DNA of 17,568 nt from a virus (Duplodnaviria > Heunggongvirae > Uroviricota > Caudoviricetes), in IMG/VR virus record IMGVR_UViG_2698536618_000023; one strand, 5' to 3'. Positions 1 to 3,000 of the stretch are shown piece by piece; the first letter of the stretch is position 1; each line of letters starts with the position of its first letter. A program made the position numbers.

Positions 1-3000
1 TCATAGATTCACTGTTCGGGCGTACCAGACACTGCTGCGAGAAATCATGGATAACCCTTGAAATTTCGTCAGATTACCGTTAAGTACGGCCTTGTAGATG
101 CGCTCAGGCTTCCTGCCGTCAACACGTTTACCAATCTTTTTAAGGGTCTGCATAGCTTCTCTATAGTCGTCCTTATGACGTTCCAATAGCTCAGCTTCAG
201 CGTGATAGCCAAGTTCGACCATCTTATTAGCAACGACCGTGGCAACTTCAGGCATCTCAAGGATAGCCTCAAAGGCTGCATAGACCATGTCCTCGAAATC
301 TTCAGAGACCCATCCTGCATACTTGAGGGTAGCCTGTTTGTCTGCGTAGGTTATGCTTTCAATACCAATCTTCTCGACGTGCATTTTTTGCATGTCGGTG
401 AGCCTCTTTGTTACCTTGCCGCGCCACTGAGAGGGTAGCTTATTGTTAGGTAATCCGAGGATTTTCCATATTTCTGTAAGATTCCACATGCCAGACTCAT
501 TAGACTTAAAGCTGTGGCCTTCAATAGTGATAATATGACCTGCATGTTTATGTTTATTGTTCATTGCTTGGTTACCTTTTAAATATGCACACTAAACCGC
601 CCCCTACTGGCCCACTCAAAGTCCCCAAGCGAAGGGAGACCAGCAGGACAACAGGATGCAAACAGAATGACTTTGAGATTGAATGAATGATTGTGTCGTA
701 GCTGTGCGGAGCTACTGTATGGTGAAGCGCGAGAGGTGGAACTTTGAGAGACACGTGGTGAGTGGTTCGGAGTGTGTCTCCTATTAGTAAGTCGTATTGA
801 TTTACTACTGGGAGGGTCTCTGAGCCACGCTAGGCATCAGGCCATACGAAACTACATGGCACCTAAAGAATGGCGTACAGGACCATACAGGGCCATACAG
901 TTAGCTTCTGGGTAATGCCTTGAGGAGACCTATAGGTTTGGTGATTGATTATTATGAATATCATCACCTCTTAAGGTATTCCCTTAGAGTCAATCTTTAA
1001 TTGTGTCTTTAAGTAGACTATAAGTTAATACTTAAAGTTACTCTTTAATTGGTCTTTAATTAATCTATAATTTAATACTTTAAGTTAATCTTTAATTAGT
1101 CTTTAATTAATCTATAATTTAATACTTTAAGTTAATCTTTAATTGTGTCTTTAAGTAGATTATAAGTTAATACTTAAAGTTAAGCCCCTGTAGGGGTTAG
1201 AGACCATAATTAATATGATGTCTAAGGCTATTCACGTATCGACTGACCCAGAGCACACAGGAAGCATTCATTTTAAGTAGAACGCTTGGTGTCTGTAATT
1301 GGTCATCCCGCCCCTGAAAGGATGCGATAAGTTACGGTTAGAGTTAAAGCTACCTGAAGTAGTAGCAAGTGTCATCATAGAGAGAGACAGAGAGAGACAG
1401 AGAGAGAAAACTTTTTGTGTCCCTTCTCCCTATAGTGAGTCGTATTAAATATGCTTGACAAGTAGTGAAAACCATGAGTCAAAACATGACCACACAAAGG
1501 GTCACACAGGACCACATAGGACCACAAAGGGGACCATAGGAATAGTAGCAAGTGTCATCGCCTATGGTCATCGCCTATGGTCATCGCCTATGGTCATCGC
1601 CTATGGTCATCCTTAAGGGGCCACAACCTCCTTATAAACATCAGCCATCACATTGACCAGTCTATCAACCTCAACCTCTTTAGCATAACGGTCGTAAGTA
1701 ATAGACCCTGAACTATGCCCCATGATCGCCTGTGCATACGCCAACTCGACCCCATGTTGTTTTAACTGGGTCGCAACTGTATGTCTAAACGAGTGAAACG
1801 CTAAGCCGCTACGGTCTGCGAGGACTTTAGGCAACAACGTCCGATTAAACCATTTACTCACCTGCTCACCGTAACCGTTCTTCATGAGGCGAAGACCATC
1901 GAACACCATAGCGTCATCACCATCAGCGCCTCTACGGGTCTCAACCAACCTCATAAAGTCAGCCAATATAAAACCATAGGCCCCATCGACCAGAGGCACA
2001 CAGCGGTCACTATGAGCGTTCTTGATGCTCTTACCGGGTAGACTACTATCGTCTTCATTGATATGAATATAAACGGTTCCCGCCTCAGTGGTCCTGACGT
2101 CTTTGACCTGTAGTTGGGCTATTTCATTGAGTCTCGCCCCAGTGATAGCAGCCAAGGCGGTAACATAATAATGATACGGCTTACCAGAAGGTCTCTGTGA
2201 GTAAACTTGGGCGGCAGCCAGTAGTTGTCCTACCTGCTCCGTAGAGAAAGCATTACGCGCCTCAGAGGCTTTACGCTGGGGAACCTTAAGCTCTAGCCCT
2301 TCTGTCATATTCTTTTTAATCAGGTCATTACGCACGGCCCACTTGAAAACAGCCGCCATCTTAATGAGATATTTATTATTGATGGTAACAATATCCAGAC
2401 AATCGGTTTTATCCTCACGACCTAGCAGGTCAACCAACGGAACATCTTTGAAACGCTGCTTACGATTCTTCGGCAATTGCTGGAGGATATCCCGAACCCT
2501 AAGCATATCCGCACGAGCTAACACATTGGCGTCAGCATTGAGGCCCAGATAATCAAAAACTTCGATTAACGCAGCATGAGAAGCTTTGTTTTCTCGTAAT
2601 GTTGCTGGCTTCCAGTTCTGGGCGTTTTCCTGCTCGTACTGCTCAAAGAGAGAAGCAACGGTTACGCAGTGTTTGCCTTCAGTAATGCTTGTTTTTTGGG
2701 GAGCACTAACAGATAGAGTTGCAGAGGCTTGGCCATTAGCCCCAGCAGCAGCATCAAATCCATCTATATAATCTATAAGTGGCTGGCTATCTCCCGCTTC
2801 AATGCGCTTCATGCAGGCCTTGAGTACATTAAGAGCCTCATTAATATAGCGATGCTGGTCAATAGTCAGTGGCTCGCTTGCCAGAGCATGGACAAGATTC
2901 TCTCCCACTTCCCCATACTGGTCACGGTATAGATCTCTCATATCTGGCTCGAAGAGGTCTGAACGACCTGTAGACAACTCCCACTCTGCGATGTCCCTCA

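Follow-up and report, generated by a model that had tools for sequence, protein, structure and literature searches.

An exact T7 promoter in a small integrative island

What is an exact promoter of phage T7 doing among short repeats just behind an integrase gene? The question arises at positions 1361-1612 of the window analysed here, 17,568 nucleotides of the Caudoviricetes record IMGVR_UViG_2698536618_000023. From comparisons of the sequence with its relatives and with T7, we think it reasonably probable that these positions lie within the expression and origin module, driven by T7 RNA polymerase, of a reduced satellite island of T7-group phages.

Window positions 1-3372 are part of a 4.29-kb island (~4.3 kb), both limits of which are 23-bp direct repeats of the tRNA-Gly(CCC) 3' end. 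The right end within the window is a partial core of that 3' end (GGGCGAAGGGAA, 3373-3386), followed by a P4-like element, and the last position identical to E. coli E110019 is 3372. The island has three ORFs in all, encoding an integrase, a KilA-N-like protein, and a 157-aa protein, together with a non-coding control module of ~1 kb (565-1612), of which 1361-1612 form the upstream half. This region is found in 93 of 5,426 complete E. coli genomes.

The integrase gene, the hallmark of the island family (1613-3244, minus strand), encodes a 543-aa tyrosine integrase (Pfam Phage_integrase, E = 2e-18) with homologues of >80% identity across Enterobacterales. Downstream of the promoters, the first gene (1-564, minus strand) encodes a putative DNA-binding protein of 187 aa of the KilA-N/Rha/Bro type, which matches PHROG 129 (E = 7.8e-10) and, below the cut-off, Pfam KilA-N (E = 9.5e-4). 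It is a core gene of the island family, present in 12 of 19 related islands and with homologues across Enterobacterales and Pseudomonas; a fold search with its AF2 model (pLDDT 84.5) returned no significant PDB match. Pfam and PHROG matches of the three ORFs were only to integrase and KilA-N/transcription-regulator families, and none of the three matched a virion-protein, DNA-replication, or terminase family. Like a satellite, then, the island is an integrative element lacking a full set of virion and replication genes; an RNA polymerase gene is likewise absent from it. Comparison of positions 700-1700 with 50,697 phage records (blastn, distant mode) gave no match at E <= 1e-5, which argues that the module is not a piece of a sequenced phage, and an Rfam search of 1-3600 gave no family.

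The promoter itself (TAATACGACTCACTATAGGGAGA, 1425-1447, minus strand) is the 23-bp T7 consensus of the class III/phiOR type, with 0 mismatches where no such match is expected by chance. It is 23/23 identical to T7 phi6.5, phi9, phi10, phi13, phi17, and phiOR, confirming an earlier note on this DNA that placed an exact T7 promoter at the centre of the module, and it would direct transcription toward lower coordinates from a predicted +1 at 1430. All of the 11 E. coli islands keep the exact promoter, and each of its flanking arrays varies among them; an extra tandem copy in one of them (L004) has one substitution, and the other E. coli island copies examined are exact. A scan for sigma-70 promoters and terminators found nothing above shuffle expectation and no good sigma-70 promoter before the cargo gene. 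A second, degenerate promoter-like site (CAATACGACTTACTAATAGGAGA, 777-799, minus strand) has 5 mismatches to the consensus; read from 799 to 777, 648 bp downstream of the exact promoter, it resembles T7 phi4.3 with a 1-nt insertion. Its 19-mer core has a single exact match in IMG/VR and is therefore not an obvious promoter type of known phages, and the function of the site is doubtful.

Unstable repeats around a conserved promoter

The earlier note saw the promoter bracketed by a 16-bp direct repeat, a GA-rich repeat, decamers, and four perfect 13-mers ending at the integrase stop codon, and all of these elements are confirmed, with small corrections. The direct repeat is 17 bp long (TAGTAGCAAGTGTCATC; sense strand GATGACACTTGCTACTA). 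Its downstream copy (1360-1376) is an edge of the promoter cassette, and its upstream copy (1543-1559) merges with the final unit of the 13-mers; two matches occur where 0.01 are expected, and 0 of 200 shuffles reach two. The 13-bp perfect tandem repeat (GTCATCGCCTATG; sense GATGACCATAGGC) has 4.5 copies (1554-1611), abuts the int stop codon at 1613-1615, and varies between 1, 2, 3, 4, and 12 copies among 11 E. coli islands. A GA/CT tract (1379-1410), in which the 10-bp unit AGAGAGAGAC x 2.9 spans 1379-1407, indeed lies at the T7 transcript start and measures 8-31 nt among relatives; within T7 it is most like the right end of the terminal repeat, though weakly (score 27). The decamer array upstream of the promoter (array A, sense CCTNTGTGGT, 1488-1540) is present in degenerate form: its core has ~3.8 units over 1493-1530 with 82% matches, the exact unit ACCACANAGG occurs only twice, at 1511 and 1521, and relatives have 2-4 units. 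The motif CACCTAAAG, noted before at 841-900, occurs there once (861-869), and the local repeat is a different decamer, array B (sense CTGTATGGCC, 872-900; TACAGGACCA x 2.5 at 876-900), again with 2-4 units among relatives.

The note would have given up its reading if related genomes showed variable microsatellites that lack positional conservation. Half of this applies: the arrays are variable microsatellites, but their positions are conserved within the island subtype. The short arrays are slippage-prone, hypervariable minisatellites at fixed positions around a conserved promoter, that is, unstable filler. Two promoters are spaced 118 bp apart in each of the relatives L004 and L037, and a 15-mer of the 17-bp repeat stands between the two tandem promoter cassettes (118-bp period); L005 and L008 have four promoters. 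One copy of the 17-bp repeat is present in L003, L004, and L037, and none in L036. On this pattern, the repeat is the boundary of a promoter cassette duplicated in relatives, and because such a boundary would allow unequal exchange, it could account for the relatives with two tandem promoters.

Three features of the module do not appear in the earlier note, namely, the second promoter-like site (799 to 777), a 47-bp x 4.2 repeat at 983-1183, and a conserved block at 1226-1341. Separately, we considered whether the 13-mers could descend from a RAZR gene (see below) that was deleted, namely from its 3' end; a MAFFT alignment agrees with this, but the likeness is too weak to support a claim.

A family of islands with T7-group phage promoters

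Islands of this family, 4.3-7.6 kb in size, occur in E. coli, Klebsiella, Serratia, Yersinia, Pectobacterium, and Proteus, all Enterobacterales. The tRNA-Gly(CCC) gene adjoins 15 of 20 related loci. T7-group promoters directly behind int, on its strand, are found in 17 of the 20 related loci from other Enterobacterales. These 17 loci have 39 promoter-core matches on that strand in the first 1.5 kb behind int; 1 match lies on the opposite strand and 5 in 250 kb outside. In two hosts the promoter matches that of a local phage. The promoter of the Pectobacterium island agrees at 25/25 positions with annotated promoters of Pectobacterium phages PP81, PP47, and PPWS4, and that of the K. pneumoniae island is AATTAGGGCACACTATAGGGAGA, which we take to be the K11 promoter sequence.

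Larger relatives (6.2-6.5 kb) encode an HK97-fold capsid protein, with 101 Foldseek matches at E <= 1e-3; among the matches listed, all 50 are capsids or encapsulins. Set against the capsid, portal, terminase, and head-completion proteins of a capsid-forming PICI, the relatives have only this protein and a DUF6971 protein, and the window island encodes neither. A defective T7-like prophage was also considered as the source of these islands and rejected: they have no RNA polymerase, DNA polymerase, or T7-like structural genes, and the capsid protein of the relatives has no PHROG or Pfam match. After int, 12 of 19 relatives carry RAZR/PD-T7-4 (zinc finger plus DUF4145, HEPN-like), a gene absent from the window island; the three RAZR relatives scanned match PD-T7-4 at E = 1e-99. 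RAZR/PD-T7-4 is a proven anti-T7 RNase that senses the phage portal (PMC13017515). In one relative (L029), Logan contigs of ~6.4 kb begin and end at att; they may be excised forms or assembly breaks and are not informative.

Likenesses to T7 origins and concatemer junctions

Downstream of the promoter (1447 to 1425), an AT-rich region follows at 983-1183 (minus strand), as in a phage origin. It consists of a 47-bp unit x 4.2, with a GC content of ~14% and many YTAAAG motifs on the transcribed-sense strand. When it is aligned locally with the complete T7 genome, the two top matches fall at 5901-6100 (primary origin, score 50) and at 301-600 (phiOL, score 47), the next-best score elsewhere being 30; the repeat unit aligns with T7 5921-6010 and 406-480. 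Against shuffles, the scores correspond to z = 9.2 (primary origin) and z = 6.2 (phiOL), and the match is found in the correct orientation only. The region thus resembles the AT-rich part of a T7 replication origin, a likeness that involves low-complexity AT-rich DNA, and we regard it as a candidate origin. T7 origins (the primary origin, phi1.1A/1.1B with their AT-rich stretch, and the secondary origins phiOL and phiOR) share the order of a promoter and then an AT-rich stretch in the same orientation, the A/T-rich cluster of the T7 origin having been described by Saito et al. 1980 (cited in PMC12839067). The island differs in that its AT-rich unit is four-fold, lies ~250 bp from the promoter, and is separated from it by a conserved 116-nt element. 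An AT-rich stretch (GC ~0.14-0.28) also follows the first promoter cluster in roughly half of the listed related loci.

The intervening 116-nt non-coding element (1226-1341, minus strand) is 88-95% identical across genera. Its predicted fold has 33 pairs, 97.5% of cells are paired, and 4 pairs show compensatory changes; this model suggests that the element is possibly a structured leader RNA. T7 primase sites ((G/T)GGTC, GTGTC) were also counted over the 1,048-bp module: the plus strand has 16 and the sense strand 9, against ~3 expected by our own estimate. These counts are inflated by repeat units, and the arrays as a source of primase sites are a lead only.

The earlier note had likened the short arrays to the ends of the T7 genome. 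The likeness has substance, but the junction-like sequences lie elsewhere and not in the arrays. The left boundary is matched directly behind the last gene, ~600 bp outside the window on its left side: 37 nt there align with T7 39751-39786 at a score of 44, against a median of 16 (sd 2.5). This motif is kept in 8 islands of at least 3 genera, and its Klebsiella version matches 126 T7-group phage genomes, at the terminal repeat where the records are annotated. On the right, a sequence inside int (CTCTGCAACTCTATCTGTTAGTGC, 2703-2726, minus strand) corresponds to T7 nt 149-168, which comprise the right end of the terminal repeat and the class II pause signal ATCTGTT (window 2708-2714); in the window island it has diverged (16/20). 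A class II signal at the T7 concatemer junction has been described (PMC11617373). The exact 20-mer is present at the homologous place of int in L005, L008, L009, L011, and L029, among which the pairs compared share only ~79% identity over int as a whole, and this 20-mer is the only non-promoter blastn-short match to T7. The motif is part of a coding sequence (SLSVS), and its conservation may partly reflect protein constraint. ATCTGTT has no copy in the non-coding module, and its only sense-strand copy is the one inside int.

The matches show copies of both boundaries of the T7/T3 concatemer junction in the island family, the left-boundary motif and the right-boundary 20-mer. The predicted cut ends would be at TCTAACAGT... 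on the left and at ...CT / ATCTGTT on the right (window 2714/2715). T7 has 160 bp between the boundaries, whereas in the island they would enclose ~0.95 kb, including attP and the 5' part of int; the T7-like order would arise only after excision or concatemerisation, and the right boundary falls within a coding region.

Satellite, defence island, or remnant

How might these parts work together? We infer the transcription, replication, excision, and packaging of the island from its sequence as follows. The island would be largely silent until a T7-like phage infects. The phage RNA polymerase would then fire the promoter, so that the cargo is expressed while host transcription is shut off, and the transcript could serve as the primer from which the phage replisome replicates through the AT-rich repeats, as at T7 origins. 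After integrase-mediated excision and concatemer formation, two junction-like sites would flank attP; the helper terminase could cut them, and the island would be packaged as a satellite of T7-group phages. We favour this reading because the exact promoter is conserved while its flanks vary, because promoters are found family-wide and match the hosts, and because no good sigma-70 promoter stands ahead of the cargo gene. The likeness to an origin, the presence of both junction boundaries, and the capsid and RAZR genes of relatives argue for it as well. Its 6.2-6.5-kb relatives have capsid, scaffold-like, and RAZR genes that the 4.3-kb form has lost, so this form may be minimal or partly decayed.

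A fuller version of this proposal is put forward tentatively, with what we would call a little under an even chance. The islands would be true satellites of virulent T7-group phages that act almost entirely by mimicry in cis, through a host-matched promoter, an AT-rich origin, and both boundaries of a junction formed across attP only after excision. Members of 6.2-6.5 kb would build small HK97 capsids and carry RAZR, and the window island would be a minimal member that has no capsid of its own and uses helper capsids. Several points weigh against the satellite reading. With no capsid genes, a diverged right junction, and a degenerate second promoter, the window island may be immobile. As long as it is integrated, int stands on the upstream side of the promoter, and the reading does not account for an excision trigger. 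Host DNA is broken down by T7 at an early stage of infection, and no function that would protect the island was identified. Finally, when phages were searched with the 187-aa and 157-aa proteins (tblastn), only weak Vibrio-phage KilA-N matches or nothing came up, and no homologue of the cargo proteins was found in any T7-like phage record.

Alternatively, the island could serve defence only, the T7 promoter acting as a sensor through which the phage polymerase switches on a toxic or interfering KilA-N-like and 157-aa cargo, leading to abortive infection or exclusion, with the island neither replicated nor packaged by the phage. The promoter of the window island drives just two small genes and the island has no capsid genes, relatives carry the anti-T7 RNase directly beside int, and the KilA-N protein has a weak PADLOC match to PD-T4-2_B (E = 1.3e-4), all of which would suit such a role. 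However, this account leaves unexplained the origin-like AT-rich repeats, the two junction boundaries, and the capsid gene of the relatives, and RAZR lies upstream of the phage promoters and hence is not driven by them. We regard defence alone as unlikely; interference and satellite behaviour are not mutually exclusive.

Decay offers a further explanation, in which a larger island has lost its RAZR and capsid genes, its repeats are products of neutral slippage, and its promoter is merely not yet eroded. Intermediates do exist: L039 and L040 have the order int-RAZR-promoters-KilA-N-157aa. The arrays are hypervariable, the second promoter and the right junction are degenerate, and int is disrupted by IS100 in one relative. 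Yet the promoter is exact or nearly exact while its flanks vary, and the int and KilA-N ORFs are intact, with identical proteins (WP_064734255.1, WP_024184497.1) recurring in several strains. The spread of the region among complete E. coli genomes and the cross-genus conservation of the 116-nt block also speak against a remnant, which we consider improbable.

The alternatives of the earlier note are very improbable: arrays abutting the int stop codon, and direct repeats, invited reading the 13-mers and decamers as arm-type integrase sites or the 17-bp repeat as a transposition or insertion scar, but 1.77 kb separates the 13-mers from the att core, their copy number is anywhere from 1 to 12 in close relatives with the same integrase protein, and they, like the other arrays, are absent from most family members (integrases 64-85% identical to that of the window), and the 17-bp repeat separates duplicated cassettes, is single or missing in the relatives named above, and has no mobile-element gene between its copies, as expected of a cassette boundary and not of a transposition footprint. 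Better candidates for arm-type sites are two copies of GTTACAGTG between int and the att core (3286-3306); GGTTACA-type repeats related to it adjoin attR, so that both att cores are flanked.

Relation to known elements

The window island belongs to a published class of enterobacterial genetic islands that bear tandem T7-like promoters (Chen & Schneider 2006, Nucleic Acids Res 34:1133; PMC1380254). Those islands were reportedly found in enteric pathogens and are said to have a tyrosine integrase, flanking direct repeats, and few small genes of unknown function, with two or three tandem promoters within a few hundred bases as part of their definition. The window island shares with them a T7-group promoter in the chromosome without a cognate RNA polymerase gene; it is also small and prophage-like, has direct repeats on either side, and encodes a tyrosine integrase. 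Its promoters, one exact and one with 5 mismatches 648 bp downstream, do not form a tight tandem pair; the close relatives L004 and L037 have such a pair, 118 bp apart.

Satellites such as P4-like elements, PICIs, capsid-forming PICIs, PLEs, and PICMIs resemble the island in their integrase, an att site at a tRNA gene, small size, and implied dependence on a helper, and PICMIs in particular combine small size with a virulent helper (PMC10803314). The island relatives carry an anti-helper defence gene and a capsid protein of their own, the latter as in capsid-forming PICIs; the window island itself has none of the capsid, portal, terminase, and head-completion proteins that characterize capsid-forming PICIs. 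In contrast to these satellites, the putative helper here is a virulent T7-group podovirus, control would lie in copies of the helper's polymerase promoter acting in cis instead of a repressor or antirepressor, and genes for a primase, helicase, terminase, or portal are absent from the island. Laboratory plasmids with a T7 origin and a concatemer junction were reportedly packaged during T7 infection (Chung and Hinkle, 1990); the same minimal cis elements are apparently present on the island, which is an integrative chromosomal element, whereas the plasmids were constructs. Our literature search for a T7 satellite found no paper describing one.

T7 is the best-studied virulent phage, and T7-like phages are favoured for therapy and biocontrol against Enterobacterales. 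If the satellite reading is true, an integrase and copied cis signals (promoter, origin, packaging junction) are almost all that is needed to make a parasite of a lytic phage, and RAZR/PD-T7-4 would have a natural home on a mobile element itself dependent on T7. Islands of this kind across Enterobacterales could then affect phage efficacy and gene transfer. The narrower lesson of 1361-1612 is that a promoter is conserved amid unstable repeat filler, with a 17-bp repeat that would explain how promoter number changes.

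Promoter module and its island

The most economical reading of the sequence comparisons is that 1361-1612 would be the upstream part of a module by which a T7-group RNA polymerase turns a small genomic island on. Window 1-3372 is 100% identical to the chromosome of Escherichia coli E110019, where copies of the tRNA-Gly(CCC) 3' end, TGGAGCGGGCGAAGGGAATCGAA, form a 23-bp direct repeat that flanks a 4.29-kb island encoding a 543-aa tyrosine integrase (int), a KilA-N-like 187-aa protein and a 157-aa protein of unknown function, together with a noncoding module of about 1 kb. Of 5,426 complete E. 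coli genomes, 93 carry this module at megablast level, and 351 have more distant versions.

The minus strand is the coding strand for every gene in this part of the window. In that sense, the int stop codon is followed by 13-mers, a 17-mer repeat, decamers, the T7 promoter, a CT tract, and the second 17-mer. Farther on come a conserved 116-nt block (1341 to 1226), a short hairpin, an AT-rich 47-bp repeat in four copies (1183 to 983), another decamer array, a degenerate site resembling a promoter (799 to 777), and the 187-aa gene (564 to 1). The direct repeat that the earlier note described as 16 bp is indeed there but is 17 bp long (TAGTAGCAAGTGTCATC, 1360-1376 and 1543-1559; two matches against 0.01 expected). 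Between its copies lies the exact T7 promoter that had been reported, TAATACGACTCACTATAGGGAGA, on the minus strand from 1447 to 1425 with 0 mismatches and none expected by chance; this 23-mer is the same as T7 phi6.5, phi9, phi10, phi13, phi17, and phiOR. The 13-mer GTCATCGCCTATG forms 4.5 perfect copies (1554-1611) reaching the integrase stop codon, and the GA tract is (AGAGAGAGAC) x 2.9, both arrays having been noted earlier, whereas the ACCACANAGG array is looser than noted, with 2 exact and about 3.8 degenerate units.

Copy number variation of the short repeats

Across 11 E. coli islands in which this region is 80 to 100% identical to the window, every array differs in copy number: the 13-mer has 1, 2, 3, 4, or 12 copies, decamers A and B have 2 to 4 units each, the CT tract spans 8 to 31 nt, ATCAATACGA ahead of the second promoter has 0 to 3 units, and the promoter cassette occurs once or twice. 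The T7 promoter itself is exact in 11/11, and the extra tandem copy in island L004 carries one substitution. In the two-cassette islands, L004 and L037, GATGACACTTGCTAC separates the cassettes with a period of 118 bp, and thus the 17-bp repeat is the edge of a duplicable promoter cassette. The arrays are missing from most other family members. We conclude that the short repeats are ordinary unstable minisatellites and that the interest is in the surrounding system. The earlier suggestion that the 13-mers are integrase arm-type sites is not supported, since the att core is 1.77 kb away from the arrays, while GTTACAGTG x 2 (3286-3306) and GGTTACA-type repeats adjoin the two att cores. Two relatives (L003 4241-4275 and L004 4241-4275) have ATCAATACGA x 3, a tandem repetition of the second promoter-like site's upstream half (equivalent to window about 800-810) and a further sign of promoter regions as slippage hot spots.

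Promoters and origin-like region across the family

E. coli relatives of the island that share its tRNA site have phage-polymerase promoters equivalent in position and orientation. In one, two T7 promoters are spaced 118 bp apart; another has a T7 promoter plus a T7/T3-like hybrid; and the ST167-type island has, in a stretch of about 580 bp, AATTAGGGCACACTATAGGG(A/G)GA twice (which we take to be the K11 promoter sequence), an exact T7 promoter, and a fourth variant. Integrases more than 80% identical are found in Klebsiella, Serratia, Yersinia, Citrobacter, Raoultella, and other genera. Scanning one genome per species yielded 20 loci, 15 of which adjoin tRNA-Gly(CCC), with island sizes of 4.3 to 7.6 kb where both att copies were found. 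A search for the promoter core CACTATAGGGAGA with up to 2 mismatches gave 39 matches in the 1.5 kb that follow int on the integrase strand, spread over 17 of the 20 loci, compared with 1 on the opposite strand and 5 in 250 kb elsewhere. The promoter specificity region varies with host genus, and the version in the Pectobacterium island has 25/25 identity to promoters annotated in the Pectobacterium phages PP81, PP47, and PPWS4. The T7-like promoter-bearing islands of Chen and Schneider in 2006 are reportedly 4 to 13 kb in size, with two or three tandem promoters and no polymerase gene. The island class is therefore already known, and the window island belongs to it.

A T7 promoter with AT-rich DNA suffices as a T7 origin. 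When the AT-rich repeat was scanned against both strands of the whole T7 genome, the best window was 5901-6100 (score 50), which lies directly behind phi1.1B in the AT-rich portion of the primary origin, followed by 301-600 at phiOL (score 47); no other part of T7 scored above 30. Against shuffles, z is 9.2 and 6.2, and the reverse complement scores only 23. An AT-rich stretch follows the first promoter cluster in roughly half of the related loci. It is established that a T7 origin has a T7 promoter and then an AT-rich region (Saito et al. 1980, cited in PMC12839067). The promoter and AT-rich repeats of the island would form a T7-type origin, and the promoter would drive cargo expression after shutoff of host transcription.

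The 116-nt noncoding block (1226-1341, minus strand) separates the T7 promoter from the AT-rich repeats. It is 88 to 95% identical in Rouxiella, Morganella, and other genera and so is conserved above the integrase protein. Its predicted RNA fold has 33 pairs, with compensatory changes in 4, and it may be a structured leader or processing site; Rfam gave no match for the block.

Copies of the T7 concatemer junction

Directly after the stop codon of the 157-aa gene, about 600 bp left of position 1 and outside the window, a 37-nt stretch closely matches the T7 concatemer junction (18668-18704 of L001, the E110019 region). This left boundary, AAATTTCCCACAAAAATCTCAGTGCCTATCTAACAGT, aligns with T7 39751-39786, AAATATACCATAAAAATCTGAGTGACTA then TCTCACAGT, the border between the two being the first base of the right terminal repeat, i.e., the left-end cut site; it scores 44 against a median of 16 (sd, 2.5). 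The motif, with TTCCCCC about 14 nt on, is conserved in 8 islands (E. coli, Klebsiella, and Pectobacterium), where it lies at the end near attR. The Klebsiella version has matches in 126 T7-group phage genomes, at the terminal repeat where records are annotated.

For the right boundary, an unbiased blastn-short comparison of four whole islands with T7 returned a single nonpromoter match, CTCTGTGTCCCTATCTGTTA (T7 nt 149-168), in three of the four. This 20-mer combines the last 12 bases of the terminal repeat with ATCTGTT, the signal for class II pausing (PMC11617373). Its position is within int, about 500 nt into the gene, where it encodes SLSVS, and it is exact at the homologous place in 5 islands, whose int genes share only about 79% overall identity (four of the five, pairwise). 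The window island has a diverged copy in int (2703-2726, minus strand; 16/20) that retains ATCTGTT. On an excised circle or a concatemer, attP would lie between the two boundaries, in an enclosed stretch of about 0.95 kb, and only after excision would their order be T7-like. These junction copies suggest that a helper terminase may package the island after excision, which would be satellite behavior. In the literature searched, which did not cover the 2006 island paper itself, we found no report of T7 satellites, nor any that connects these islands with RAZR, with a capsid gene, with a T7 origin, or with the concatemer junction.

Cargo of the island family

The conserved gene order of the family is int, a zinc-finger/DUF4145 protein, promoters, the AT-rich region, further promoters, a small ORF, a KilA-N/Rha/Bro-like protein, another small ORF, a DUF6971 protein, and a 330- to 400-aa protein. 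At E = 1e-99, the DUF4145 protein is PD-T7-4/RAZR, an RNase directed against T7 that the T7/T3 portal ring activates (PMC13017515); its gene directly follows int in most relatives (L005 5060-5692, L006 4611-5240, L008 8609-9241). The main rival to the satellite reading, with which it is compatible, is a role in defense only, by polymerase-triggered interference. The window island is without RAZR, the 13-mer and decamer arrays standing in its position, and retains only the KilA-N-like and 157-aa genes; two relatives (L039 and L040) are intermediates, with RAZR and the same cargo as the window island. The 4.3-kb island would, on this gene content, be a reduced family member. That it is a neutral remnant is less likely, since the promoter is invariant, the ORFs are intact, and the 116-nt block is conserved across genera.

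In L008 (about 11134-12822), with homologues in 10 to 11 loci, a DUF6971 protein with a coiled-coil tail precedes the 330- to 400-aa protein. The relatives' 375-aa protein has no match in Pfam or PHROG; its AlphaFold model (pLDDT 64) matches HK97-fold capsid proteins and encapsulins (101 matches at E <= 1e-3), so the 330- to 400-aa protein is predicted to be HK97-fold capsid-like. Pseudomonas fluorescens, P. syringae, and Pseudomonas sp. have homologues of the KilA-N-like cargo protein (P0245, P0252, and P0254), and thus the island family or its cargo may reach beyond Enterobacterales.

Integration site and neighbors

The T7-promoter island is separated from its tRNA-Gly by a second, P4-like element (3373-17568) inserted in tandem at the same site, which is why the window has no intact tRNA. 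This element encodes a 412-aa integrase (4838-6076), a DNA primase family protein, Icd-like, Rha, and ProQ/FinO proteins, and SSB. Its intergenic short tandem or iteron-like repeats (3933-3989, 6348-6485, and 9617-9774; units of 19 to 20 bp x 2.9, 12 bp x 2 to 3, and 9 to 12 bp) may serve as origins or in regulation. The whole window is in no complete E. coli genome of the collection, the best coverage being 65%. The T7-promoter island abuts on its left in E110019 (L001 1-18400) a GH15 glycoside hydrolase gene and the degenerate ETT2 type III secretion island, many of whose genes are frameshifted, and glyU is a crowded hot spot of integration. Contigs of near island length are found in some assemblies of metagenomes or isolates (L029 from Logan, 6466 bp, with both ends exactly at the att repeat, and L027, 6635 bp), which could be coexisting excised and integrated forms or mere assembly breaks.
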